Of a DNA stretch of 12,588 nucleotides, positions 1 through 12,588 are shown in pieces. Where the stretch lies: positions 1 through 12,588 of the IMG/VR virus record IMGVR_UViG_2713896773_000018. One strand, written 5' to 3'. Numbering within the stretch: the first letter of the stretch is position 1; each line of letters begins with the position of its first letter. Both the position numbers and the translations under genes were made by a program. This DNA is from a virus (Duplodnaviria; Heunggongvirae; Uroviricota; Caudoviricetes). The notes below the pieces were generated by a model. That model was not told the origin of the DNA. It ran no database searches and saw only the letters and a program-made list of their open reading frames with translations.

Positions 1-597
1 TCATTGGGCTGCCTCCTGGCGAAGTTGGGCGGCGCGAATTGCTTTCCACTGCGACCACATTCCGTTGTAATCAGTACCGGAAAGAGTTGAGTTGCGGTAG
101 CCGTCATCAGTGCGCAAACCTTCTAGCGTGGTCTTAGAGATGAATATCTTCTCCATTACCCATTCTTCGAATAAATCACGCTCCGTCGCTTCATCTGGAA
201 TAGCACTTGCCCGTACTTCAGCCAGGAAAGCGTCGGTGGCTGGGGTTTTGTTATCTGACTCCAGCCACTGGTTGTAGTAATAATCGAACATGCCAGTAGG
301 ATAACCACATCCGCTGTGCACGTGGTCTTTCATAGCAGAACCACACATGCAGTAGTCATTGTCAGTATTGCTAATGATGTCGATAAGTTGCTGTGTCCGT
401 TGCTTCAACATCGCATTCTCCGCAGCCAGCGCCGCGCATCTGGCTTTAAGCTCTGATAATCGGTCACTGCATTCCGCCAGCACCACATCAACATCGGTAT
501 CAAGCGGAGGAACATGCATGCTGGCGCGGCCTTTGGTGAAGTCTTCAAGTGCCTTTTCGATTCGTTCTTTCAGTGCTGGCTGTGTATTATTTTTCAT
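1..597 (-). CDS. hypothetical phage protein (198 aa from ATG at 597; Cys/His-rich central segment CMCGSAMKDHVHSGCGYP); nin-region position downstream of ren
   Basis: Long minus-strand ORF with its stop codon at 1-3. The ATG at 595-597 overlaps the stop of the upstream Ren-like gene (ATGA overlap) and is preceded by a GGGGTGAGAG Shine-Dalgarno-like stretch. The upstream GTG at 651 has no usable spacer. No family recognised. Confidence 0.6.
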   Translation of the reverse strand: MKNNTQPALKERIEKALEDFTKGRASMHVPPLDTDVDVVLAECSDRLSELKARCAALAAENAMLKQRTQQLIDIISNTDNDYCMCGSAMKDHVHSGCGYPTGMFDYYYNQWLESDNKTPATDAFLAEVRASAIPDEATERDLFEEWVMEKIFISKTTLEGLRTDDGYRNSTLSGTDYNGMWSQWKAIRAAQLRQEAAQ

Positions 598-935
598 GCT
601 CTCACCCCGTATACGCTTAAAATTCTTCTCATCGCCGCGCTGTTGCGGCACTCCTGGCAGATCACGTTTGCCTCTGTACGCTGCACCAGCTTCGAATTTC
701 CCTTCGGCATAGCCGGGATTGTTTCTGGTGCGTATTTCATGCCGTAATCGGTCAGCCGATAAAGCCGCTGGCCGTATTTTCCTTCGCAGCGGATCAGGCC
801 GTCTGCCAGCAGCGTGCTCACCGTTCCGGATATCTTTTTGGTGTCCATGCCGATAAGCCCTGCCAGTTTGGCGTTGTTCAACCCTGGGTTGTTGCGCAGG
901 GCGGCCAGCACCTGCTCACGGATTGTTATGTTCAT
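594..935 (-). CDS. ren: Ren-like protein (113 aa)
   Basis: Start at the internal ATG 933-935, one nucleotide after the P stop; the ORF-track N-terminal extension overlaps P and is rejected. C-terminus ...CQECRNSAAMRRILSVYGVRA resembles the C-terminus of lambda Ren as I recall it (...KECRQSAAMKRVLAVYGVKR). Position immediately downstream of P matches lambda. Confidence 0.65.
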   Translation of the reverse strand: MNITIREQVLAALRNNPGLNNAKLAGLIGMDTKKISGTVSTLLADGLIRCEGKYGQRLYRLTDYGMKYAPETIPAMPKGNSKLVQRTEANVICQECRNSAAMRRILSVYGVRA

Positions 936-936
936 G

Positions 937-1626
937 TCACACCATCCCGTTCGACTTGTTGCGGTTGTACTTGGCCAGCAGCAGCTGGATCGGCGTCGGC
1001 CCTTGCTCGGCAGCTGGTGCGGCAATAGCCCGGCGTACCGGCGGCACTGGCTTACCCTCGGTGACGCGCCTTTCCCACATGTCCAGCAGATCGCCTGCCT
1101 CGCGTGCCAGTTCACCATGCGTTAACTGGCGCTCGGTGCTGCGGTGGCGCAATTCTACGCAAATGTGGTACATGACCGGCTGCGACCATGGAAATTGCTC
1201 GCTGGAGATGAATTCGAACGAACGATTACGCCATTCCCAGTACTCGGCGATCACCTGGTCAACGTTGACGCCCAGCGCGCCGCCGCTCTGCTTGCACCAG
1301 GCGACGAACTGGCCCGGCGACGGCAGGAATGGGCGCTCCTGGCGGCGGGCAATGCGCATGCCGGCATCGACCTGAGCCATGGTGTGGATCCCGTTCTCCT
1401 GAAACGCCAGCAGCCACTGACGGCGGAATTCGTTCAGGTCTTCCTGGGTGCGGAAGTTCGCCATGCTGGCCGGGAACGCGGCGCGCAGCTCGTTGAACAG
1501 CTTGTTGAATACCTGCGCCACCTGCTCGACCGGCGCGCACTCCTGGTACTGCTCTGGCAGGTTATGGGCCATGCGGCTCATCTGCTCGCGGTCGTGGTTA
1601 CGCATCTGCTCTGCAAGAGATTTCAT
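937..1626 (-). CDS. P: replication protein P-like (DnaB helicase loader), 229 aa
   Basis: Collinear similarity to lambda P from memory along the whole length (e.g. MKSLAEQMRNHDREQMSRMAHNLPEQY... and RRQERPFLPSPGQFVAWC). Start ATG 1624-1626 overlaps the O stop (ATGA) and is preceded by GGGGTGA. Confidence 0.9.
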   Translation of the reverse strand: MKSLAEQMRNHDREQMSRMAHNLPEQYQECAPVEQVAQVFNKLFNELRAAFPASMANFRTQEDLNEFRRQWLLAFQENGIHTMAQVDAGMRIARRQERPFLPSPGQFVAWCKQSGGALGVNVDQVIAEYWEWRNRSFEFISSEQFPWSQPVMYHICVELRHRSTERQLTHGELAREAGDLLDMWERRVTEGKPVPPVRRAIAAPAAEQGPTPIQLLLAKYNRNKSNGMV

Positions 1627-2531
1627 CGGATCACCCCATAGGCCCAGTCAGTGTTGTTGAAGTCCAGATCTGGCTTGACAGCGCGCTGCTCACCTCCGGC
1701 GTTACGCTGCATTGTCAGCTTGTCCCACTGCTTACGCAGGCTTTCGGGACTCAGGATGTTGGTCTGCCAGAAGTGGTGTTTGCTAGCCCAGTCATACAGC
1801 GCGCAGATGTCCTGGTGCGACCGGTTGTCTATCTGGCGCATCAGGCGAACAGTGTTAGACCAGGAGGTCATGTCCGGGGCTTTGCAGGTTGGGTTAATCA
1901 GCTTCACCCTGGAGGAAATCCACTTAGCTGTCTCGAGGTCTTCAGCAGAGCCCCACTTCGCACCGGATGGTGTGTAGACCGCAGCTTCAGGATGAGTTGA
2001 TAAAAATTTCTTCAGACGTGCGTCAGAGGATTCGTCAGAATTCTCGGACGAAGATCTTTTAATACTGTTCTTGTTCTTGTATTGGGTGTCTACCGTTTTC
2101 GGGAAGGTTATTCCTGATTTCGGGAAGGATTTTCCCGTTTTCGGGAATTTTCTTCCCGTTTCCGGTTTGTCTAAAATCCATGCTGAAAGGTCAGTGTTTA
2201 CACCGACGATTTTCATCATGCCCTGCTTCTGTGAAAAGATGATTTTGCGTTCTGCGAGAGACTTAAGCGCGTCCGATACATGCGTATCGCTCAGGCCCGT
2301 AAGCTCGGCAATAACCGTATTTGTCACGCGGTCCTGTTTCTTGTTCCAGCCGTAGGTAAGCCAGATCACCGCCTCAAAACATTGCCATTCCCGGCCTGAC
2401 AGTCTCAGGCGAGGCTTAAGCTGTTGGATCTCGTTAGCGACCTTGGTATACCCGTTCGACAGGTCGGCCATACGACCTCCCGGTTGTTCGGTTTTATTTG
2501 GGAAATTGATTATTTCAGCGGTGTTTGACAT
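1623..2531 (-). CDS. O: replication initiator O-like protein, 302 aa
   Basis: N-terminal region (MSNTAEIINFPNK...LTYGWNK...) resembles lambda O. Start ATG 2529-2531 with GGGAGTAAGT RBS; the upstream in-frame extension from the ORF track is rejected. A central repeated peptide FPKTGKSFPKSGITFPKT is encoded by the DNA iterons. Confidence 0.85.
   Translation of the reverse strand: MSNTAEIINFPNKTEQPGGRMADLSNGYTKVANEIQQLKPRLRLSGREWQCFEAVIWLTYGWNKKQDRVTNTVIAELTGLSDTHVSDALKSLAERKIIFSQKQGMMKIVGVNTDLSAWILDKPETGRKFPKTGKSFPKSGITFPKTVDTQYKNKNSIKRSSSENSDESSDARLKKFLSTHPEAAVYTPSGAKWGSAEDLETAKWISSRVKLINPTCKAPDMTSWSNTVRLMRQIDNRSHQDICALYDWASKHHFWQTNILSPESLRKQWDKLTMQRNAGGEQRAVKPDLDFNNTDWAYGVIR
2045..2160. other. 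phage origin of replication (ori-lambda-like): three 21-bp-spaced iterons with internal dyad symmetry plus an adjacent AT-rich stretch, inside the O gene
   Basis: TCGGGAA(GG) recurs at 2099, 2120 and 2141, exactly 21 bp apart, each followed by an inverted TTCC(C/T)G arm (CGGGAAGGATTTTCCCG, CGGGAATTTTCTTCCCG). The flanking 2045-2090 segment is AT-rich (cttttaatactgttcttgttcttgtatt). Lambda ori has the same layout within O. Confidence 0.7.
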
Positions 2532-2616
2532 ACTTACTCCCGTTACTTGCCGTAACACAGTGTGATAAGGGCCTTTGAAGTTACCGCTTCAAGGGCTTTT
2601 TCTTTTCTTGTGCCTC

Positions 2617-3159
2617 TCATATAACCCCCAGCATCGATGTAACCATCGTCATCAGCGGTCCTACCTGCTCCGGCATGAGGCGAAACAATGACGCTATGCC
2701 CTCGCTTACCTCCTTCATTTTCTGGTGCTCAGGCGCGTTCAGGAGAACGGCTTGCTTTGCTTCTGAACATTCCTTCATGGCAGATGCGATCAGCGACATG
2801 GTGTCGTTCTGCGGCGCCAGGCGTGTACGAAACTCAACAGGAAGAACAGCCATGATTGCCGGGGTCAGTTCTCTAACGTTCTCGCGGTACTGATCGGAGT
2901 CGAAGCGGTTATCCAGAAAGCGAAAAAGTTTCTGGCGCGCCCTGCTGATGTCTTCTGGGAAGCTGATGGCGGTACCGCCCTGCTCCCGGTATTCGTTGAT
3001 GATCAGCGCTGACACTACGTCCTGATTGTCCAGGGACGACGACCATGCACGGACCGCATCGCGGATTTTGTCGTGACCTGGCTCCGCCTTAGGTTGAGCG
3101 CGGTTTATCATCGCTCCCGGGTGTATTCCGGTATTGTGTTGATACGCAAGTGAATGCAT
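2617..3159 (-). CDS. CII-position regulatory protein, YdaT / CP76-type (180 aa)
   Basis: ATG at 3157-3159 with AAGGGA RBS. Lies between cro and O where lambda has cII, but is twice the size of CII. Segments IINEYREQGG... and RELTPAIMAVLPVEFRTRL resemble Rac prophage YdaT as I recall it. Family assignment is from memory and unverified. Confidence 0.5.
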   Translation of the reverse strand: MHSLAYQHNTGIHPGAMINRAQPKAEPGHDKIRDAVRAWSSSLDNQDVVSALIINEYREQGGTAISFPEDISRARQKLFRFLDNRFDSDQYRENVRELTPAIMAVLPVEFRTRLAPQNDTMSLIASAMKECSEAKQAVLLNAPEHQKMKEVSEGIASLFRLMPEQVGPLMTMVTSMLGVI

Positions 3160-3189
3160 TGCTTTCCCTTTCGTGGTTAGAGCCGCCGG

Positions 3190-3411
3190 TTAGGCGGCAA
3201 AGATACCTGGATATAGAACTTCGCGAGGAAGTCCGGTTACTTCTTCGTATTTACGCATTTTTGTTACTGGAAGGCTGCCACCTCGCTTTTTAAGCATATT
3301 GATGGCCTGAGGCGTTACGCCGACCTTTTCAGCAAGCACCTTTTGAGAGCCGCCCACTGCATTAATGGCTTTCTCAAGCGGGGTGCTGGCGTTGGATTTT
3401 TTGTTGATCAT
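3190..3411 (-). CDS. cro: Cro-like HTH regulator (73 aa)
   Basis: First gene divergent from the repressor. HTH segment QKVLAEKVGVTPQAINMLKKRGG. ATG at 3409-3411 with a GGAG RBS. Confidence 0.8.
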   Translation of the reverse strand: MINKKSNASTPLEKAINAVGGSQKVLAEKVGVTPQAINMLKKRGGSLPVTKMRKYEEVTGLPREVLYPGIFAA

Positions 3412-3432
3412 GTTTTGCTCCGCTCATGTGTA

Positions 3433-3506
3433 ATCAACACCATGTTAATTCATGGCGTGGATTAAATCAACATTATGGTGATGGAAAAAATCCACATGTT
3501 GTTTAC
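3433..3506. promoter_or_regulatory. OR-like operator cluster: three 17-bp sites of form ATC[AC]ACA-N3-TGnTnAn between cro and cI
   Basis: Site A 3433-3449 ATCAACA CCA TGTTAAT; site B 3466-3482 ATCAACA TTA TGGTGAT; site C 3490-3506 ATCCACA TGT TGTTTAC. The same half-site recurs in the OL region at 5458-5541. Confidence 0.65.
3442..3470 (-). promoter_or_regulatory. candidate PR promoter for cro (minus strand): -35 TTGATT (3465-3470), -10 TAACAT (3442-3447), 17-bp spacer
   Basis: Hexamers read on the minus strand; they overlap operator sites A and B as PR overlaps OR1/OR2 in lambda. The -10 is a weak match, so the exact hexamers are uncertain. Confidence 0.4.
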
Positions 3507-3528
3507 CATGCATGGAGCGGAGGGTTTT

Positions 3529-4248
3529 ATGAGCAGCATTTCTGAAAGAATTAAATTTTTACTGGCAAGGGAAGGCTTGAAGCAGCGGGATTTGGCTGAG
3601 GCTTTGTCGACTAGCCCACAGACCGTTAACAACTGGATAAAAAGAGACGCGTTAAGTCGTGAGGCGGCGCAACAAATATCTGAAAAATTCGGTTATTCTC
3701 TTGACTGGTTATTAAATGGAGAGGGTTCTCCAAAGAAGGATCTGGAGAGCAACATCCCGCCAGAGTCTGAGTGGGGAACTGTCGACGCTTGGGACAAAAA
3801 TACCCCCCTACCTGACGATGAGGTGGAAGTACCGTTTCTGAAGGATATCGAGTTTGCGTGTGGTGATGGACGAGTACACGATGAGGATCACAACGGTTTT
3901 AAATTGCGCTTTTCAAAAGCAACGCTCCGTCGAGTTGGAGCTAACACAGATGGGTCTGGCATCCTGTGTTTCCCTGCTACTGGCGACAGCATGGAACCTG
4001 TGATACCGGATGGTACGACTGTAGCCGTCGATACGAACAACAAACGCATAGTTGATGGGAAACTGTATGCCATTGGTCAGACAGATGGCGGGAATGGTCA
4101 ACTCAAGCGCATTAAACAGCTGTATCGTAAGCCAGGTGGGAAGCTGATCATCCGCAGTTACAACAACGACTCCTACCCAGACGAAGAGGCTGATATTGAT
4201 GATGTCGAGATAATTGGCCGTCTCTTCTGGTACTCGGTATTGCTGTAG
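3529..4248 (+). CDS. cI: CI-like prophage repressor (XRE-type HTH + S24 LexA-like autopeptidase), 239 aa
   Basis: N-terminal HTH (RDLAEALSTSPQTVNNWIKRD). C-terminal S24 signatures GDSMEP (catalytic Ser) and GQLKRIKQL (Lys). The ATG at 3529 has a GGAGCGGAGGG RBS; the upstream ATGs at 3475/3481 lie inside operator site B and lack an RBS. Confidence 0.9.
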   Translation: MSSISERIKFLLAREGLKQRDLAEALSTSPQTVNNWIKRDALSREAAQQISEKFGYSLDWLLNGEGSPKKDLESNIPPESEWGTVDAWDKNTPLPDDEVEVPFLKDIEFACGDGRVHDEDHNGFKLRFSKATLRRVGANTDGSGILCFPATGDSMEPVIPDGTTVAVDTNNKRIVDGKLYAIGQTDGGNGQLKRIKQLYRKPGGKLIIRSYNNDSYPDEEADIDDVEIIGRLFWYSVLL

Positions 4249-4294
4249 CGGTGGCCTGATGAGACGTTTTGGTGAAAGCATATAAGGACTGTTG

Positions 4295-5161
4295 ATGGAA
4301 AACACTGGCTTACACGATGTTAATTTTTCACTTAGATATGACGGTTTGGATGCTGAAAAGCATGAGATTGAACTTTCTTCGCTCGGTGAATCGCTAAAGG
4401 GATTTTCGAAGATATTAGCTACAGCTGGAACCTTCGCATTAACCCAAAAGTACTCGCGAAGCACCTCAACTCAAGAGGTTAAAATTTACGCTACCGAAGC
4501 TAGGGCCAATTGTTTTTCTCTTGATACTATCATGAATTTTATCAGTCAGTCTCAATTGTTCTCAGGGTCTGCGGGGGCTATACTTGGCGCATTAGTGCCT
4601 TATATCTTCGCTAAAAACTCGCAGAAGAAAGAGGAAATGAAATACCTAAAAGAAGCACTTGAGAAGGCAATTGAGGCCCTCGGAAATAAAGATAAAGATA
4701 CCATCTCAGGTCTAATCTCAGTGATTGACAAGATGGCTAGTGAGTTACGCCCATCAGTTAGACAGGCAGTTTCCCCCATCGGTACCACCTGTAATAAGAT
4801 AAGCGTCACACCGGGGAATGGTTTCAAGCCTGCTGTAATTGATGAGCAAGATAAAGCAGTAATAGACCAGTTGGACGACGACGAAGTTCTTGGCTTAAGG
4901 GAGTATCGAATCTTCCTTACTGAATTCGACGCTCACCGAATGACCGCTAAAGTCATTATAGAAGGTGATGATTCAGATAAGCGCATCTCAGCACAAATAA
5001 GCGATCCATCTGCTTCAAAGGCAGACAACCCGTATCTCATTTCACTTAGTCGTTTTCTGTCAACGGGTCTAAGTCATGAGTCAGCGGTAAAAGTAACTGC
5101 CAAAGCAGCAGTTAGAAAAGGGGCTATTAGTAAACTTTTCATAGTTGATATTGAGCTTTAA
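4295..5161 (+). CDS. hypothetical protein (288 aa) in the rex/immunity-moron position; one short hydrophobic stretch, no recognised domain
   Basis: ATG at 4295 with AAGGA RBS (the ORF track starts at a TTG at 4292). Immediately downstream of and co-oriented with cI, followed by a terminator. AT-rich: about 38% GC in a hand-counted 130-nt sample. Hydrophobic stretch [17 protein letters not shown], then a K/E-rich helical segment. Confidence 0.8.
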
Positions 5162-5164
5162 CAA

Positions 5165-5187
5165 CCGGCCACCGCGCCGGGTTTTTT
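5165..5187 (+). terminator. rho-independent terminator ending the cI operon
   Basis: CCGGC-CACCG-GCCGG stem-loop followed by TTTTTT, directly after the stop at 5159-5161. Confidence 0.7.
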
Positions 5188-5191
5188 GTGC

Positions 5192-5401
5192 CTACTTCAC
5201 AGCTTTACTACCCTTCCTGACTATCTCAGCTGCATCCCTGTTCACACCCTTACCTATCACGTTTCCCGTTTCCTTCCGGTACCGTTCCAGCTTGTCGATG
5301 ATGTTTTGCTGGGTCATAGGTAAATCTGCCAGTGACAACTCCATGACCGCCCGCCCCATGGCGTGAACCATCATGTTCACTCTTTCTTCATCCAAGTCCA
5401 T
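5192..5401 (-). CDS. hypothetical small protein (69 aa), convergent with the cI operon
   Basis: Strong RBS AAAGGAGTGGGTA before the ATG at 5399-5401. Its upstream region is the AT-rich operator-bearing segment 5402-5500. No family recognised. Confidence 0.6.
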   Translation of the reverse strand: MDLDEERVNMMVHAMGRAVMELSLADLPMTQQNIIDKLERYRKETGNVIGKGVNRDAAEIVRKGSKAVK

Positions 5402-5457
5402 TACCCACTCCTTTTTGATGTTTTTTTCAGCATATCACTTATGCCACCAAAAAATAA

Positions 5458-5542
5458 ATCAACATAAAAATCAACAGTAAACGATTAAATCAACAAAATA
5501 AATCCACAAGGTGTTGACCTACAAATCCACATGATGTTTAAT
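5458..5542 (+). promoter_or_regulatory. OL/PL-like region: operator half-site array plus candidate PL (-35 TTGACC 5514-5519, -10 TTTAAT 5537-5542, 17-bp spacer)
   Basis: ATCAACA at 5458, 5470 and 5489; full sites ATCCACA AGG TGTTGAC (5502-5518) and ATCCACA TGA TGTTTAA (5525-5541). The promoter hexamers sit inside these two sites, as in lambda OL1/OL2. Confidence 0.6.
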
Positions 5543-5588
5543 TACTCCATCGAAACGAAACATCGACAGCTGAGCGAAGTTAGCCAGC

Positions 5589-5619
5589 GGCGGACAGCAA
5601 GTCGCCTGCTTTTTAACAA
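5589..5619 (+). promoter_or_regulatory. candidate nutL-like antitermination site: hairpin (5589-5606) followed by boxA-like TGCTTTTTAACAA (5607-5619)
   Basis: TGCTTTTTAACAA differs at one position from the E. coli rrn boxA core TGCTCTTTAACAA as I recall it. It lies about 40-70 nt downstream of the predicted PL start, preceded by a GGCGG/UCGCC stem. Confidence 0.4.
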
Positions 5620-5843
5620 CATGCAAAGTCGGAACAGCACTCAGTAATCCTGTTTAGACCCCAACGTACAAATTCGGCGCAGCACCGGGCGCGATCCGGT
5701 CGGTGTGAGGCTACCCCCTCGCGAGAGCGATAAAGGCGTGGGAACGGGCAACACTGGCTGGATGAGAGGTGCGAAGCGCAAACAGATTTATTCCAGTCCA
5801 TTCGAAGTTGAGTGGGCTGGGCTGAATCACAAGAGGATTTTTT

Positions 5844-6056
5844 ATGACTCAGACATACATTCCGGCGTGTTTAAGAGACCTTCCTAAGAAGCGTCAGAAG
5901 CCACGCAAACAGGCGATTAAAGAAGCGCAAGTGGAAGTTCTGAATAAGGCAATCGCATCGATAAAAGACGATATGCGTGCGTTCAAAACAGAAGAGCAGC
6001 GTCGCGGTCATTACCAGGCGATCAGCACACTCTCACAGATTCGTGATGAGTTGTAG
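5844..6056 (+). CDS. small basic protein (70 aa), first gene of the PL operon (N position); function unassigned
   Basis: Strong RBS AAGAGGA with a 6-nt spacer. Basic N-terminal segment LPKKRQKPRKQAIK. No clear arginine-rich motif of the lambda N type, so an antiterminator role is positional inference only. Confidence 0.6.
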   Translation: MTQTYIPACLRDLPKKRQKPRKQAIKEAQVEVLNKAIASIKDDMRAFKTEEQRRGHYQAISTLSQIRDEL

Positions 6057-6079
6057 AAGCTGATAGATAAAGCATTTCT

Positions 6080-6097
6080 CCCGCATCAGCGGGTAAC
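6080..6097 (+). repeat. copy 1 of a 17-bp direct repeat CCGCATCAGCGGGTAAC (hairpin CCCGC-ATCA-GCGGG)
   Basis: Identical 17-mer at 6081-6097 and 6303-6319, each just upstream of a gene's RBS. Confidence 0.8.
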
Positions 6098-6113
6098 TAA
6101 GTGGAGAGTACGT

Positions 6114-6302
6114 ATGCACAAGTGTCAATTCTGTGGGTACTTTCTGGCATCTGAAGAGATGCAGAGAATATCTGTAAACATGGTTGGCAGGCCTTACAAC
6201 ATCTGCATTCCATGCTCAGAAAAGTACAAAAAGAAAGGCCTGTGGGATTCGGCAAAAAACGATATCGACTGGAAATCACTTCCATGCGTCGATGAGACAT
6301 AA
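6114..6302 (+). CDS. small zinc-ribbon-like protein (62 aa; CxxC...CxxC)
   Basis: RBS GGAGAG with a 5-nt spacer. Cys pairs CQFC and CIPC about 24 residues apart. AT-rich. Flanked by the 17-bp direct repeats. Confidence 0.6.
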   Translation: MHKCQFCGYFLASEEMQRISVNMVGRPYNICIPCSEKYKKKGLWDSAKNDIDWKSLPCVDET

Positions 6303-6319
6303 CCGCATCAGCGGGTAAC
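6303..6319 (+). repeat. copy 2 of the 17-bp direct repeat CCGCATCAGCGGGTAAC
   Basis: Exact match to 6081-6097; begins one nucleotide after the stop of the 6114-6302 gene. Confidence 0.8.
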
Positions 6320-6335
6320 GACAGAGGGTAAGTCA

Positions 6336-7004
6336 ATGATTCGTCTTAACAACGAAATTAAAAATCAGCTATGCCATAACCTGCTTCTCGCATCCCCATT
6401 GTTTGAGAAAGCGAAAGCTGCGGTTAATGAGAGGGCGAAAATTGTTGAAGAAATTCGACAGGCATTGCTCAAGCAGGAAAACACTAGCGATGAGCAAATA
6501 ACTAAGGCTCGGGAAGATTTCAAAGATAACTCCTTCATCAAGATGCAGGTCGGCGCTAAAACTGCAACTTTAAAGGTCATTATTAATGGTGAGTATCACG
6601 AATTAGCCAGGAACGGTTTGGATCATCGCTATCGCCACCGTGGAAAACATATTGGTAAGCACGATCTTGAAAGCGACCTGTTCTTCGGAGCTTCCTTCGC
6701 GCCTGTAATTGATTCGGGTTTCGTTCCTGAAAGTTACAGCACGCTGAAGAAAGTTGGAAAATTACACGACCGACTCACTGAATCGACGGTAACCATCAAC
6801 GTTCTTTACGATGAAGTTGATGCCTTCCAATTGCAGGTTAAAGGTGCTCTAACCAAAGTCTCAACTGTTAAAAAACTGGCTGAGATGTGGCCTGAGGCAG
6901 TGCCATATTTGCCTGAGGTGGAACGCCGTGAAGCGACCAGCACCGCACTTGCCATTCCCGTTGAAACGCTAAACGCCCTTTGCGGCATACCAAAGAATGA
7001 ATGA
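6336..7004 (+). CDS. hypothetical protein (222 aa), AT-rich accessory gene in the ral/sieB-equivalent position
   Basis: RBS GAGGG. A long ORF with no internal stops in AT-rich DNA, followed by a strong terminator. No family recognised. Confidence 0.8.
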   Translation: MIRLNNEIKNQLCHNLLLASPLFEKAKAAVNERAKIVEEIRQALLKQENTSDEQITKAREDFKDNSFIKMQVGAKTATLKVIINGEYHELARNGLDHRYRHRGKHIGKHDLESDLFFGASFAPVIDSGFVPESYSTLKKVGKLHDRLTESTVTINVLYDEVDAFQLQVKGALTKVSTVKKLAEMWPEAVPYLPEVERREATSTALAIPVETLNALCGIPKNE

Positions 7005-7026
7005 CCCGCTCCGGCGGGTTTTTTAT
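7005..7026 (+). terminator. rho-independent terminator
   Basis: CCCGC-TCCG-GCGGG stem-loop followed by TTTTTTAT, immediately after the TGA at 7002-7004. Confidence 0.8.
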
Positions 7027-7165
7027 CGGCCATACATAGGCAGATTTTCGAGTCTGCCCATTTATGACAACCGGCGGCCATCCACCGCCCATTGAAACAC
7101 TGAATAAATGCGTTGAAGTCTTGTATTAACCGTTCGGCGGCGCGGCCTTAAGCGCGGAGATGATT

Positions 7166-7675
7166 ATGACTCTTATCGAATTGACCAAAAAGAAAATGGC
7201 AATTGAAGCCGAACTGGCTCAGTTGAAGGCGAAGTTTGTTGATGACACCTCACGCATCGGTAAAGAGCTGATTGCCGTGTCTGAAGGTATCAACCAGGCC
7301 AATAAAGGCCTAACGGTTGAGATGGTTAGGCATGGCATGACGATCATTAACTTCGGTGACCCGAAACAAAGCATGGAGCGGCGCGGGTGTGTTGAAGACG
7401 CGATTAACGACATTGCGTCGGGGTTCAACCGTCTGAGCGAGCGTTATTTTGGCACAAAAAACTACGCCCACTGGAGCGATCAGCGTGAAGACCATCGCTA
7501 TGGATATGGCCCTAAACACGGCTCTATCTGCTTCAAGATCGGTTTAACTGGCACCGCACTTAATAAGCTGGCAAGCGGCGGGTTGAGTGATTACGACGCT
7601 GAATGCGCTATCTACTGCCTGATGAACATTGACGCCATCAATGCGGCAAACGACAAAGCCCGGGAGGCATCATGA
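7166..7675 (+). CDS. hypothetical phage protein (169 aa)
   Basis: GGAG at 7156-7159 favours the ATG at 7166 over the one at 7160. The stop overlaps the next ORF's start (ATGA). Confidence 0.7.
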   Translation: MTLIELTKKKMAIEAELAQLKAKFVDDTSRIGKELIAVSEGINQANKGLTVEMVRHGMTIINFGDPKQSMERRGCVEDAINDIASGFNRLSERYFGTKNYAHWSDQREDHRYGYGPKHGSICFKIGLTGTALNKLASGGLSDYDAECAIYCLMNIDAINAANDKAREAS

Positions 7676-7830
7676 CAGTCACCCATAACGGAAAGAAGTA
7701 CACCGCCAAAAAGCTCAACGATAACGAGTGGCAGCTGACGTCCGTATCGGCACCGCGTGAAAAGCTGACGCTTAACCGCTGGCATATGAAGCTGGCTGGC
7801 CTCCTGGAACAGGTTGAGGTGAAGGTATGA
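7672..7830 (+). CDS. small hypothetical protein (52 aa; MTVTHNGKKYTAKKLNDNEWQLTSVSAPREKLTLNRWHMKLAGLLEQVEVKV), not in the supplied ORF track
   Basis: Strong RBS GGGAGG 5 nt upstream of the ATG at 7672. ATGA overlaps with both the upstream and downstream genes suggest translational coupling. Confidence 0.55.
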   Translation: MTVTHNGKKYTAKKLNDNEWQLTSVSAPREKLTLNRWHMKLAGLLEQVEVKV

Positions 7831-8333
7831 TGCGAAAGCACAAGTTGCCAAGTGCTGAGGAGATAGATTCCTTGCTGGATTACAACCCTGAAACCGGAGT
7901 ATTTACGTGGAAAGTGACGAAATCAGGATGGGTTGTAAAGGGGCGGCCTGCTGGTTCAAAAAACAATAATGGCTATCTCCGAGTTGGTATTGGAAGAAGG
8001 CACTACTTCCTTTCTCGAATCGCATTTTTCTTATGCACCGGGGAATCACCTGAAGAAGTAGACCATATCAATGGTGACAGAACAGATAACAGGGCGTGCA
8101 ACTTAAGAGCCGCAAGCCGTCATGAAAACTGCCTCAATAAGTCGGTAAGAAGCGACAGCAGGACTGGTGTAAAGGGCGTCTCATGGCGACCGGATGTTAA
8201 AAAATGGTCTGCACGATCAACTGATTCATCGGGGAAGAGAGTGTTTTTAGGTTACTACCGCACCATCAGAGATGCGGTGGCTGTCCTTAATGATTTTCGG
8301 AGAGAACAGCATGGTGAGTTTGCAAAAAATTAG
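7827..8333 (+). CDS. HNH homing endonuclease with C-terminal AP2-type DNA-binding domain (168 aa)
   Basis: HNH motif EEVDHINGDRTDNRACNLRAASRHENCLN. AP2-like segment GVKGVSWRPDVKKWSARST...KRVFLGYY. RBS GAGGTGAAGG. Confidence 0.85.
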   Translation: MMRKHKLPSAEEIDSLLDYNPETGVFTWKVTKSGWVVKGRPAGSKNNNGYLRVGIGRRHYFLSRIAFFLCTGESPEEVDHINGDRTDNRACNLRAASRHENCLNKSVRSDSRTGVKGVSWRPDVKKWSARSTDSSGKRVFLGYYRTIRDAVAVLNDFRREQHGEFAKN

Positions 8334-8544
8334 CAGCAACTTGCACTACGGCACCACCCCGCTCATTCGCCAGTGCGTCACGCCAGGCATGATGGCATTG
8401 CATGAAGGCCGCACCTATCGCGTCTCAGCAGTCATTCAGGAGCGCAAATGGGTGTACCTGCACACCGATGCAGAAATTATCCGCCTCAGTGACTGCGTGA
8501 TTGACGTCCTTCTGGACGGTCACGGAAACCCTATCCAGCACTAA
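8311..8544 (+). CDS. hypothetical protein (77 aa), start overlapping the 3' end of the HNH gene by 23 nt
   Basis: RBS GGAGAG with a 6-nt spacer before the ATG at 8311; the ORF-track start at 8272 has no RBS. Confidence 0.5.
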   Translation: MVSLQKISSNLHYGTTPLIRQCVTPGMMALHEGRTYRVSAVIQERKWVYLHTDAEIIRLSDCVIDVLLDGHGNPIQH

Positions 8545-8613
8545 CCACCCTATTCATCCGATCGGCCTGGCTTCTGCGGGCGGGATCTGCACATCCAAAT
8601 TTCAGGAGAAACC

Positions 8614-9582
8614 ATGAGCGAAGTAACGGACTTAACTGTCATCGAAATCAAGCCGGAACAGGCCCCAGTGCTTTACGTAGCGGGCGGCCTTGACGCGTAC
8701 CTTGAGCAAATCCGCCAGGCTGTAAACGAAGTGCCGGACCTGTCCACGAAGAAAGGCCGTGACCGTGTCGCCTCTCTGGCGGCGCAGGTATCCCGCAGCA
8801 AGACAGCAATCGAAAAGCCGGGCCGTGAATACCTTAAGCGCCTGAAAGAGGCTGTGCGTCCGGCTGAGGCCGAAATTAAGCGTTTCGTTGATGCTTGCGA
8901 CGAGCTACGTGATGCCACCCGCCGCCCACTCACCGAATGGGAAGCCGAGCAGGAGCGCATCAAGGCTGAAGAAGCCATGAATGCGCTGCACGCCGAAGCG
9001 CTGGAGATGAACGAAGAGTTTGACCGCCAGCGCGCCGCTCAAATCGAAGCGGACCACGAAATGGCTCTGCTGATGAATGAGAAGTTTGACCGTGACCGCG
9101 AAGAGCAGCGCCGCCTGGCAGAACAGGCTCAGCGCGAACGTGACGAACGACTGAAGCAGGACGCGGCAGAACAAGCCCGCCGCGATGCCGAAGCGATGCA
9201 CAAAGCAGAGATTGAAGCCGCAGCGCGCCGTGAAGCTGAAGAGAAAGCACGTGCAGAGCTGGCTGAACGCCAGCGCGTCGAAGCGGAACAGCGTGCAGCT
9301 CGCGAGAAGCAGGAAGCAATCGCAGAAGAAAAACGCAAAGCGCAGGAAGAAGCAGATCGCATCAAGCGCGAAGCTGAAGCGAAAGAGAAAGCCCGTCTGG
9401 CCGAAGAGCAGCGCAAAGTTGAAGAAGAAGCGCGCCGCGCCGCAGACAAAGAGCACCGCCGCACCGTCAACCGTCGCGTCATCGCCGACCTTATAGCTCA
9501 GGGCATCCCCGAAGAATTCGCGCAGAAAGCACTGCTGGCGATCGCTGGCGGCAAAGTGCAGGACGCGCACATCAAATATTGA
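8614..9582 (+). CDS. hypothetical protein (322 aa) with a long Ala/Glu/Arg/Lys-rich low-complexity central region
   Basis: RBS AGGAG. Globular-looking N-terminus of about 100 aa, then about 180 aa of ERKA-rich repeats (e.g. AEEKRKAQEEADRIKREAEAKEKARLAEEQRKVEEEARRA), then a short C-terminal tail. Located immediately upstream of gam. Confidence 0.75.
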   Translation: MSEVTDLTVIEIKPEQAPVLYVAGGLDAYLEQIRQAVNEVPDLSTKKGRDRVASLAAQVSRSKTAIEKPGREYLKRLKEAVRPAEAEIKRFVDACDELRDATRRPLTEWEAEQERIKAEEAMNALHAEALEMNEEFDRQRAAQIEADHEMALLMNEKFDRDREEQRRLAEQAQRERDERLKQDAAEQARRDAEAMHKAEIEAAARREAEEKARAELAERQRVEAEQRAAREKQEAIAEEKRKAQEEADRIKREAEAKEKARLAEEQRKVEEEARRAADKEHRRTVNRRVIADLIAQGIPEEFAQKALLAIAGGKVQDAHIKY

Positions 9583-9589
9583 GGCAACC

Positions 9590-9871
9590 ATGAACGCATA
9601 CCTCACTTACGACCGAATCGAAGATCGGCGCTGGGTTGAGCAGCAGCTCACCGACGAGAAGGAGAAGTGGATCGACAACCGGGCGAAAGAACTGATCGCC
9701 ATGTTCCCGAAATATGCTCTGCAAATGAGTAGCCTGTTTCTCCCAAAAGAAGCGCAAATGGCACTAGTCGGTGAAAAGGCAGAGGAAGCCTATAACGACT
9801 ATGTCACACGCATCTGTTACGACCGCGCCGAAGAAGAGTGGGATCGCCTTCATCCAACCTGCCCATTTTAA
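9590..9871 (+). CDS. gam: Gam-like host-nuclease (RecBCD) inhibitor, 93 aa
   Basis: N-terminus MNAYLTYDRIEDRRW... resembles the short form of lambda Gam (MNAYYIQDRLEAQSW...) from memory. Position directly upstream of the annealing-protein and exo genes. RBS GAGG. Confidence 0.55.
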   Translation: MNAYLTYDRIEDRRWVEQQLTDEKEKWIDNRAKELIAMFPKYALQMSSLFLPKEAQMALVGEKAEEAYNDYVTRICYDRAEEEWDRLHPTCPF

Positions 9872-9880
9872 GGAGGGGCT

Positions 9881-10798
9881 ATGAGCTTAACCCTTGTTGA
9901 TTTCGTCAAACAACAGGAGCCGCTTTTCATTAAGGCGGCCACAGACGAGCGGATGGTGTGGGCGAAGGAAAGCCAGTTCGCCATCCAGCTATTTCAGAAC
10001 AATGACTACCTCGCGAAAGTCGCATTCCAGAACCAGACCAGCACGCAGAACGCAATAATCAACGTTGCGGCTATCGGTATTTCGCTAAACCCAGCTCAGA
10101 AGCTGGCTTACCTGGTTCCGCGTAAAGGGGCAGTTTGCCTCGACATCAGTTACATGGGCCTGATGCACATTGCGCAGCAGTCTGGCGCCATTAAATGGTG
10201 TCAGTCGGCAATTGTTCGCAGAAACGACCAGTTCCGCCGCGAAGGGCTCGATAAGCCGCCGGTCCATATCTACAACGACTTCGATACCGAAGAGCAGCGC
10301 GGGGACATCGTAGGGGCATATGTAACGGTAAAAACTGACGATGGTGATTACCTCACCCATACGATGCGCATCGATGCCATTTACTCCATCCGTGACCGGT
10401 CTGAAGCATGGAAGAAGTACAAATCTGACAACAGTAAAAAGTGTCCATGGGTCACTGACGAAGAACAGATGATCCTCAAAACAGTCGTGAAGCAGGCAGC
10501 AAAATACTGGCCTCGCCGTGAGCGCCTGGACGCCGCCATAGACCACGTTAACACCGAGGGCGAAGAAGGTATCAACTTTACAGCAGAGCGTCAGCCTGAG
10601 CGCGATATAACGCCGCTTAGCGAAACCACGCAGAAAGAGATAAACGACCTGCTTGTCTCTTTGGATAAGACATGGGATGACGATCTTCTCCCTCTCTGCT
10701 CACGCATTTTCAAACGCCCTATCACGCAGCCAGCAGACCTGACAGAGCTTGAAGGTGTTAAAGCTCTCGGGTTCCTCAGACAAAAGGCGGCAGCATGA
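9881..10798 (+). CDS. single-strand annealing protein: RecT-like core with a Red-beta (Bet)-like C-terminal tail, 305 aa
   Basis: Perfect RBS AGGAGG. The C-terminal ~70 aa ([13 protein letters not shown]...[16 protein letters not shown]...[12 protein letters not shown]) closely match the lambda Bet C-terminus as I recall it. The N-terminal ~230 aa look RecT-like rather than Bet-like. Stop overlaps the exo start (ATGA). Confidence 0.8.
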
Positions 10799-11475
10799 CA
10801 CCAGAAATTATCCTGGCCCGGACCGGCATTGACGTAACCACTATCCAGCAGGGCGACGAGGCGTGGCACCGGCTGCGCCTCGGCGTTATCACCGCATCTG
10901 AAGTTCACAACGTCATTTCCAAGCCCAGATCTGGGAAGAAGTGGACAGACATGAAAATTTCCTACTTCCACACCCTACTCGCCGAGGTATGCACCGGCGT
11001 AGCGCCAGAGGTTAACGCCAAGGCGCTGGCCTGGGGGAAGCAGTATGAAGAAGACGCCCGCACCCTCTTCGAGTTCACCACCGACGTGAAAGTCACGGAG
11101 TCTCCGATCTTGTTCCGTGACGAGAGCATGCGCACCGCGTGCTCACCTGACGGCCTTTGCAGTAACGGATTCGGCCTCGAATTGAAATGCCCGTTCACCT
11201 CCCGCGACTTCATGAAATTCCGCCTTGGCGGTTTCGAAGCCATCAAGTCTGCCTACATGGCCCAGGTGCAGTTCAGCATGTGGGTGACCGGGAAAGACGC
11301 CTGGTTCTTTGCCAACTACGACCCGCGCATGAAGCGCGAAGGTATTCACCACGTCGTCGTTGAGCGGGATCCACAGTACATGACCAATTTCAACGAAATG
11401 GTGCCGGAGTTCATCGAGAAGATGGACGAGGCGCTGGCGGAGATCGGCTTCAGGTTCGGGGAGCAGTGGAAATGA
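10795..11475 (+). CDS. exo: lambda-type 5'-3' exonuclease (Red-alpha / YqaJ family), 226 aa
   Basis: Near-collinear, high-identity match to lambda Exo from memory ([14 protein letters not shown]...[24 protein letters not shown]...[31 protein letters not shown]...[10 protein letters not shown]). Confidence 0.93.
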
Positions 11476-11518
11476 AACGCACACCATTTTACCGCAGGCC
11501 CGGGCGAACCGGGCAATC

Positions 11519-12097
11519 ATGAAACGCCTGGACGATGTTTGCGGCAAAGCAGGATGGCGCAATGAATACCGCGATATTCCCAACAACGGCGGAGTTGAAT
11601 GCGGCATATCAATCAAGATTGATTCCGAATGGGTAACCAAATGGGATGCTGCTGAAAACACGCAGGTAGAAGCCGTCAAAGGTGGTCGTTCAGGTGCAAT
11701 GAAGCGTGCTGCCGTTCAGTGGGGAATAGGTCGGTATCTGTATAACCTTGAGGAAGGTTTCGCACAAACATCTCTCGATAAAAAGCAGGGATGGCACAGG
11801 GCAAAACTCAAGGGTGGAACAGGATTTTACTGGCTCCCTCCATCGCTGCCGGGATGGGCAATCCCAGCATCAGATAACAAACCATCACCAGAAAATACCA
11901 ACCATAAATCTCCATCGGTTGACTGCGAGCAAATCCTGAAAGACTTCAGCGATTATGCGTCAACAGAAACTGATAAGAAAAAACTCATCGAGCGTTATCA
12001 GCGTGACTGGCAATTAATGGCTGGCAACGAGGAGGCGCAGGCTAAATGCGTTCAGGTAATGAACATCAGAGTTAACGAACTAAAACAGGCGGCATAA
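11519..12097 (+). CDS. Erf/Rad52-superfamily-like protein, apparently N-terminally shortened (192 aa)
   Basis: C-terminal ~55 aa (EQILKDFSDYASTETDKKKLIERYQRDWQLMAGNEEAQAKCVQVMNIRVNELKQAA) closely match the P22 Erf C-terminus as I recall it. Rad52-like motif AMKRAAVQWGIGRYLY at residues ~60-75 leaves too little upstream sequence for a complete annealing domain. Weak RBS. Confidence 0.55.
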   Translation: MKRLDDVCGKAGWRNEYRDIPNNGGVECGISIKIDSEWVTKWDAAENTQVEAVKGGRSGAMKRAAVQWGIGRYLYNLEEGFAQTSLDKKQGWHRAKLKGGTGFYWLPPSLPGWAIPASDNKPSPENTNHKSPSVDCEQILKDFSDYASTETDKKKLIERYQRDWQLMAGNEEAQAKCVQVMNIRVNELKQAA

Positions 12098-12319
12098 ATG
12101 GCAAGCAGAGGCGTAAATAAGGTGATCATTATTGGTCGCCTTGGGCATGATCCAGAAATCAGAGATTCATTCAACAAGGTTGCAAAGCGCGTTCCGGCAT
12201 TCAAAGGAATCCTCAACGAATGGGATTCACTCGTTGCTCTGTTGAAGTCTGAAATGAAGATACACGGAAACAAAGCACCAGAGACTTACAGAAGAATCAG
12301 CGAGCTACGCAAGGACTAA
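12098..12319 (+). CDS. 73-aa ORF whose first 22 codons are an ssb 5' remnant (MASRGVNKVIIIGRLGHDPEIR) fused to unrelated sequence
   Basis: The first ~66 nt resemble the start of E. coli ssb at protein and DNA level, from memory. After codon 22 no frame continues SSB-like sequence, so this is a recombination junction rather than a frameshift. Whether the product is functional is unknown. Confidence 0.45.
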   Translation: MASRGVNKVIIIGRLGHDPEIRDSFNKVAKRVPAFKGILNEWDSLVALLKSEMKIHGNKAPETYRRISELRKD

Positions 12320-12320
12320 C

Positions 12321-12381
12321 GCCTCACACTCGATGAGGCCTGTACATATCTGATAGAGCCGCTATATGGCGGTTTATTTTT
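12321..12381 (+). terminator. two hairpins after the ssb-remnant ORF; the second (12358-12381) is terminator-like with a T-tract
   Basis: Perfect 6-bp inverted repeat GCCTCA-N7-TGAGGC at 12321-12339. Then CCGC-TATATG-GCGG followed by TTTATTTTT. Confidence 0.45.
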
Positions 12382-12396
12382 GCCTGGAGAATTAAG

Positions 12397-12588
12397 ATGA
12401 CCGATACCAGCCTGATTCCTGAGAAAGAAGTGATGAACAAGCTCGGTGTTTCATCACGTCAGACAATCTGGAACTATACCAAACGGCACGGATTTCCGAA
12501 GCCAGTCAGAACCCACCCCAAATCATACCTTCGTGAAGCTGTTGAAGGGTGGATTCTTAACGGTGGCGTTAATCAGAAATGCTCCTGA
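12397..12588 (+). CDS. xis: excisionase / AlpA-family small HTH protein (63 aa)
   Basis: RBS GGAGAA. Motif EKEVMNKLGVSSRQTIWNYTKRHGFPKPV is typical of the AlpA/Xis family. Sits at the distal end of the early-left operon where xis-int lie in lambdoid phages. The stop is at the last three bases of the window. Confidence 0.75.
   Translation: MTDTSLIPEKEVMNKLGVSSRQTIWNYTKRHGFPKPVRTHPKSYLREAVEGWILNGGVNQKCS

Follow-up and report, generated by a model that had tools for sequence, protein, structure and literature searches.

We analyzed a 12,588-nucleotide stretch of viral DNA (Caudoviricetes; IMG/VR record IMGVR_UViG_2713896773_000018, positions 1 to 12,588; hereafter the window), in which a seven-base motif, ATC[AC]ACA (also written ATCMACA), is repeated between the cro and cI genes and again upstream of the early-left operon. 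Judged from the sequence, these repeats are almost certainly the right (OR) and left (OL) operators of a lambdoid prophage of phi80 immunity. A preliminary description, made from the DNA letters alone, had read the repeats as OR and OL operators of lambda type, bound by the repressor encoded at 3529-4248; it thereby correctly recovered a phage genetic switch, and its proposal is borne out by identity to phage phi80 and by the CI operators annotated in GenBank. The operator reading is already known and publicly recorded: the switch belongs to the classical phage phi80, its operators have been in GenBank since 1988, and no open question is advanced by it. The sole new angle is a conserved array of direct-repeat half-sites, together with its link to an unannotated small gene.

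The plus strand carries eight copies of the motif in these two regions, at 3433, 3466, 3490, 5458, 5470, 5489, 5502 and 5525. As had been described, the first three lie between cro (3190-3411, minus strand) and cI (3529-4248, plus strand), and the other five lie 5' of the early-left operon, which reads rightward. On both strands of the whole window there are 16 copies, against 3.27 +/- 1.74 expected from 200 dinucleotide shuffles of the window, which served as the null model for motif counts; at least 16 copies were reached in 0 of the 200 shuffles. Five of the copies begin longer sites composed of seven, three and seven bases (7+3+7), as the preliminary description had recognized: the pattern ATCMACANNNTGNTNA occurs exactly five times (at 3433, 3466, 3490, 5502 and 5525; 0.02 expected), and a search of the window for further full sites returned the same five. 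Within them, the left and right halves agree at 4-6 of 7 positions, and the right half, once reverse-complemented, fits ATCAACA at 5-6 of 7. The base that precedes all eight operator copies is A, which extends the half-site to AATCMACA.

The eight other copies of ATCMACA in the window (487, 1389, 3143, 3408, 4296, 7243, 9901 and 11369) are mostly in coding sequence. We take them as background rather than as operators because they have no partner half and only the copy at 9901 has the preceding A. Among these copies, exact ATCAACA stands on the minus strand at the beginning of cro (3402-3408), near that of cII (3137-3143) and at that of the 40A gene described below (4290-4296), in each case with neither the preceding A nor a partner half.

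The features that make up the switch are the following, with operator and promoter names as in the phi80 genome record JX871397.

3190 to 3411, minus strand: cro analogue (phi80 gene 30), 73 amino acids (aa), HTH_3/YdaS-type by Pfam, identical to phi80 at 73 of 73 residues.
3432 to 3450, plus strand: OR1, AATCAACAccaTGTTAATt, a CI operator of JX871397; contains the pR -10 hexamer TAACAT (3442-3447, minus strand).
3456 to 3462, minus strand: inverted half-site with one mismatch, ATCCACG, in the pR spacer between OR1 and OR2; unannotated as an operator.
3465 to 3483, plus strand: OR2, AATCAACAttaTGGTGATg, annotated in JX871397; overlaps the pR -35 hexamer TTGATT (3465-3470, minus strand) and reaches two bases into the pRM -35 hexamer (3481-3486).
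3489 to 3507, plus strand: OR3, AATCCACAtgtTGTTTACc, annotated in JX871397; overlaps the pRM -10 hexamer TACCAT (3504-3509).
3529 to 4248, plus strand: cI repressor, 239 aa, with an N-terminal helix-turn-helix (HTH) domain, Phage_CI_repr/HTH_3 (PF07022/PF01381), and a Peptidase_S24 domain (PF00717).
5457 to 5476, plus strand: OL3, 20 base pairs (bp), AATCAACAtaaaAATCAACA, a CI protein_bind feature of JX871397 made up of two direct half-sites, HS_a (5458-5464) and HS_b (5470-5476).
5489 to 5495, plus strand: HS_c, ATCAACA, unannotated as an operator; inside the O-L region of X13065.
5501 to 5519, plus strand: OL2, AATCCACAaggTGTTGACc, annotated in JX871397; contains the pL -35 hexamer TTGACC (5514-5519).
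5524 to 5542, plus strand: OL1, AATCCACAtgaTGTTTAAt, annotated in JX871397; contains the pL -10 hexamer TTTAAT (5537-5542).

Comparison with phi80 provides the most direct evidence for these assignments. Positions 3150-5900 of the window match the phi80 immunity region at 97.7%, and identity to JX871397 reaches 100% over OR (3400-3540) as well as over OL and the sequence flanking it on the left (5150-5620). Cro, the DNA-binding half of cI and the pR, pRM and pL hexamers are also the same, whereas the C-terminal domain of cI has diverged and the early-left operon differs beyond about 5761. The whole window is covered by phi80 over only 64% of its length, at 95% identity, and by this comparison it is a mosaic relative of phi80, distinct from phi80 itself. 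Homology to phi80 ends near 5761, past a nutL-like region.

Two records of the phi80 genome, JX871397 and NC_021190, contain six CI operator protein_bind features along with the pR, pRM and pL hexamers, all of which we mapped onto the window. Five of the six are 19-mers that correspond to the 7+3+7 cores plus one base on each side, and the sixth, the 20-bp OL3, is HS_a plus HS_b. The full sites had been predicted to lie over the -35 and -10 hexamers of PR and PL, and the hexamers of JX871397 do fall inside or against the same five cores, so that by annotation and by direct reading of the sequence both promoters have dyad-symmetric sites over their -35 and -10 elements. In the 1988 record, X13065, the O-R region corresponds to window positions 3432-3512 and the O-L region to 5457-5548; the latter begins exactly at the first half-site, ends beyond the pL -10 and encloses all five left half-sites. 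What the phi80 records leave unannotated is the half-site at 5489, the inverted half-site at 3456-3462 and a 69-aa gene to the left of OL, along with the conserved half-sites as neighbors of a weak promoter-like element of that gene. Every defining feature that could be tested was found in the sequence, which places the switch of the window in the phi80 immunity (imm80) group. Two 1988 papers of Ogawa et al. and a 2012 paper of Rotman et al. are said to be the primary accounts of the phi80 operators and genome. A full-text literature search with the operator sequences returned a table of putative RacR targets as its sole match.

The layout of the region is lambdoid, in that cI and cro diverge around OR, a second operator lies upstream of the early-left operon, and the repressor joins an HTH (PF07022/PF01381) to a LexA-like S24 autocleavage domain (PF00717). 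Residues 1-139 of cI, which span the DNA-binding domain and the linker, are 100% identical to phi80 cI. The protein has a mosaic joint beyond which the S24 C-terminal domain has diverged from that of phi80 and carries a 5-residue insertion, and overall identity is 89%.

Relatives of the window allow the operators to be matched with the protein that reads them. Our sample was 106 loci encoding cI homologs, many of them near-identical, so that they are dependent samples. Many loci combine the C-terminal domain of this cI with an unrelated N-terminal HTH, and a shared C-terminal domain with differing HTHs amounts to a natural swap experiment. At 51 loci, which reduce to 28 distinct upstream sequences, cI has the phi80-type recognition helix, QTV[NH]NW[IL]KR. 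In the 200 bp ahead of cI, every one of the 28 has between two and five half-site hits, and two or three full 7+3+7 hits are present in 25. Upstream of cI genes with the same C-terminal domain and another HTH (55 loci, 39 distinct sequences), half-site hits were found in 0 of 39. The operator sequence thus co-varies with the recognition helix of the repressor. In one diverged relative (L069/L008, 75% cI identity), OR1 is the perfect palindrome ATCAACAtaaTGTTGAT, which establishes ATCAACA-N3-TGTTGAT as the ideal site.

Conservation within OR follows the annotated sites. Among 22 distinct relatives, the OR half-sites are 0.84-1.00 identical to the window, compared with 0.65-0.89 for the central triplets and 0.69 for the gap between OR1 and OR2; OR1 itself stands at 0.97-0.99. 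The inverted half-site at 3456-3462 is conserved at 0.82-0.95 at six of its seven positions, versus 0.18-0.77 across most of the adjoining gap, and it reads as a perfect ATCCACA in HK225 and several other relatives.

Several points weigh against the operator reading. The assignment of operators and promoters was taken from the feature tables of GenBank, and a simple sigma-70 consensus scan of the window called none of pR, pL and pRM. The loci behind the co-variation are the partly redundant sample described above. Finally, the third OL site has no dyad: OL3 is two direct half-sites 12 bp apart, and such a geometry is unusual for an HTH dimer.

Starting from the observed positions and identities of the sites, we infer an order of occupancy, activation, cooperativity and a role for the half-sites as follows. 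Dimers of cI would bind the 17-bp pseudo-palindromes ATCMACA-N3-TGTTnAn. OR1 lies over the pR -10 and OR2 over the pR -35, and because these elements would be occluded, bound cI is expected to stop rightward lytic transcription. The center of OR2, at 3474, precedes the inferred pRM start by about 42 bp. Lambda cI activates PRM from about -42, and by analogy the repressor may activate pRM from OR2. The position of OR3 over the pRM -10 makes negative autoregulation possible; its left half varies more among the relatives than any other operator half (0.41-0.68 at two positions), which would fit a weak autoregulatory site. At the other end, OL1 and OL2 lie over the pL -10 and -35, and their occupation would block leftward lytic transcription. 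Cro would compete for the same operators, and RecA-stimulated self-cleavage through the S24 domain would lead to induction; Eguchi et al. in 1988 reportedly established this cleavage for phi80 cI. The three direct-repeat half-sites would be auxiliary weak docking sites for the same protein and most likely add cooperative or looping contacts; the distance between OR and OL is 2036 bp. Such sites could stabilize higher-order or looped complexes, act on the divergent small gene, or do both.

Compared to lambda, the arrangement is familiar and its details are not. The two switches share divergent cI and cro genes around OR, three OR sites, operators over the -10 and -35 of PR and PL, a middle OR site at about -42 of PRM, a repressor with an HTH and a LexA-like S24 domain, and operators of 17 bp. 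However, the half-site ATCMACA is unrelated in sequence to that of lambda, and the dyads of the window are strongly asymmetric, each with a near-invariant half and a degenerate one, and they all point the same way. Adjacent lambda operators are 20-24 bp apart between centers, whereas OR1 and OR2 are separated by 33 bp center to center (OR2 and OR3, by 24 bp). The third OL element is composed of direct half-sites instead of a dyad. In addition, the lambda PRM mRNA is leaderless, while the predicted pRM leader of the window includes a Shine-Dalgarno sequence, GGAGG, at 3520-3524.

The closest solved structure to the N-terminal domain of cI is that of the 434 repressor (E = 2e-4), although the match is weak and covers only cI residues 3-66. 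In phage 434, repressor and Cro recognize a common set of operators by means of similar helices. Here, the phi80 recognition helices are also alike, SPQTVNNWIKR in cI and TPQAINMLKKR in Cro, and the similarity fits with operators shared between the two proteins; Cro (gene 30) very probably binds the same sites as cI. The 434 operators themselves differ, being 14 bp long (ACAA-N6-TTGT) as opposed to 17 bp in the window, and of another sequence.

The preliminary description called the left array unusual for its three extra tandem half-sites. These are real and conserved, but they are novel only in part, since two of them constitute the annotated OL3 and the O-L region of X13065 takes in all three. 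Next to the copies at 5458, 5470 and 5489, the sequence at the place of the partner half matches at 1-2 of 7 positions, versus 2.2 expected from local composition. Because this is at or below the composition expectation, we consider the three to be true direct-repeat half-sites. OL3 as annotated, AATCAACATAAAAATCAACA, overlaps none of the annotated promoter elements.

Across 30 other distinct OL regions, identity to the window is 0.95 for HS_a, 0.95 for HS_b and 0.87 for HS_c, compared to 0.62, 0.56 and 0.67 for the gaps at 5477-5488, 5509-5511 and 5519-5524. OL2 stands at 0.97-0.98; the alignment was anchored on OL1, which makes the conservation of OL1 itself uninformative, and many of the aligned regions are closely related among themselves. 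Judged by this pattern, the extra half-sites are conserved and not incidental. Their spacing is also kept in relatives. Center to center, HS_a and HS_b are 12 bp apart, HS_c and OL2 13 bp, HS_b and OL2 32 bp, HS_a and HS_c 31 bp, and OL2 and OL1 23 bp. With spacings of 31, 32 and 33 bp, site pairs about three helical turns apart recur at both OR and OL.

The extra half-sites could also serve mainly to control the promoter of the divergent small gene, in which case OL would be a two-way switch like OR. We regard this as possible, though on balance unlikely. Such a role concerns the extra sites only and is compatible with the operator reading: cI positioned beside a weak -35 would activate or repress the gene in the lysogen while OL1 and OL2 silence pL. 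Two features are involved.

5192 to 5401, minus strand: 69-aa gene, phrog_3975, divergent from pL; unannotated in JX871397 and NC_021190.
5429 to 5457, minus strand: putative promoter of the 69-aa gene, with a -10-like TATGCT (5429-5434), a 17-bp spacer and a -35-like TTATTT (5452-5457) that abuts HS_a.

Gene and array tend to occur together. In all 15 representative loci with the half-site array there is a minus-strand open reading frame (ORF) of 63-76 aa (44 aa in one), which starts at a distance of about 60-190 bp from OL1 (82-124 bp in most), and two lineages that lack the small gene retain OL1 and OL2 with no more than degenerate remnants of the extra sites. This association could also arise if half-sites and small gene were co-inherited as one block. 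Moreover, one lineage (L075/L076) runs counter to it: there is no small divergent gene, yet two direct half-sites (ATCAACAcaaaaaaATCCACA) stand right after the cI terminator, about 780-870 bp past the cI start and about 50 bp upstream of OL2. Because the pair is kept there without the gene, it may have a role independent of the gene.

The promoter-like element is similarly two-sided. Of 31 distinct OL regions, 27 have a TAnnnT hexamer (TATGCT, TAAGTT or TACGCT) 16-18 bp from the TTATTT abutting HS_a, and the two hexamers are conserved (0.88 for the -10-like, 0.97 for the -35-like) around a variable spacer (0.66). Lambda PRM is an activator-dependent promoter with a weak -35, and by analogy the weak -35 here would be typical of a promoter of that kind. 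The conserved hexamers beside HS_a are therefore suggestive of a promoter under repressor control. However, a simple consensus scan of the window did not call this promoter, and a 17-mer starting from HS_a would be centered near -44 by calculation, as opposed to -42 at pRM. On this evidence, we propose only tentatively that OL is a second divergent switch, in which conserved cI half-sites abut the conserved weak -35 promoter of a widespread 65-76 aa gene and the repressor directly controls the small protein in the lysogen through non-palindromic, direct-repeat binding. If so, that control would probably be activation.

The 69-aa protein sequence has no Pfam family, its 490 homologs are all named 'hypothetical', and its AlphaFold model, three helices with a pLDDT of 65, is too weak for a fold search. 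An AriR/YmgB-like identity was considered and is without support. The 1988 sequence, X13065, has three indels within the gene. The region is 100% identical in the laboratory strains DH5alpha, DH10B and TOP10, and the 69-aa gene is also present in other phi80dlacZ lysogens. If the repressor controls this prophage gene, DH5alpha, DH10B/TOP10 and other phi80dlacZ lysogens would express it constitutively, and the array would be an example of a cI-type repressor acting on direct-repeat half-sites.

A far less probable alternative, which we consider highly unlikely, is that the A/T-rich ATCAACA repeats upstream of pL are host-factor or architectural elements, such as IHF sites, DnaA boxes (TTATCCACA-like), or phased A-tracts or an UP element that would stimulate pL. 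There is an IHF site upstream of lambda PL, and the region in the window is very A-rich. The repeats share ATCAA with the IHF core WATCAA, and ATCCACA matches seven of the nine positions of a DnaA box; given this partial likeness, we searched for each consensus. Nothing in the window matches the full IHF consensus WATCAANNNNTTR, and the DnaA box TTATNCACA, allowing one mismatch at most, has no match in OR or OL, so that IHF sites and DnaA boxes are ruled out. Furthermore, the repeats exactly reproduce the conserved half of the five annotated cI operators, down to the preceding A, and they are confined to loci with the phi80-type recognition helix. Chance clustering has practically no claim on the data: it would be favored by the A/T-richness of the two intergenic regions, in which short A-rich 7-mers readily recur, but the shuffle counts given above, the conservation of the sites in relatives and their co-variation with HTH type refute it. 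The repeats are thus best read as operators of the phi80-type repressor.

A further element had been suggested next to OR3, a perfect 10-bp palindrome just upstream of the cI ribosome-binding site.

3506 to 3515, no strand assigned: palindrome CCATGCATGG, overlapping the pRM -10 and start region; no separate element.

The palindrome is present at that position, but its standing as an element does not hold up. The window contains 10 perfect 10-bp palindromes against 12.3 expected, and the right half of this one is only 0.32-0.64 identical in relatives; the chance-level count and poor conservation together rule it out as a regulatory element.

Between cI and the 69-aa gene lies one further gene.

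4295 to 5161, plus strand: homolog of phi80 40A, with DUF7946 and DUF7947, downstream of cI.

It occupies the position that rexAB has downstream of cI, which makes it a candidate lysogen-expressed exclusion or defence gene. An Rfam scan of the whole window returned no family at threshold; a terminator scan placed a terminator-like hairpin after 40A, at 5165-5190. At the position of the phi80 N gene, the window instead has a 70-aa ORF (5844-6056, phrog_5305) with a lysine- and arginine-rich (K/R-rich) N-terminus, which it shares with HK225.

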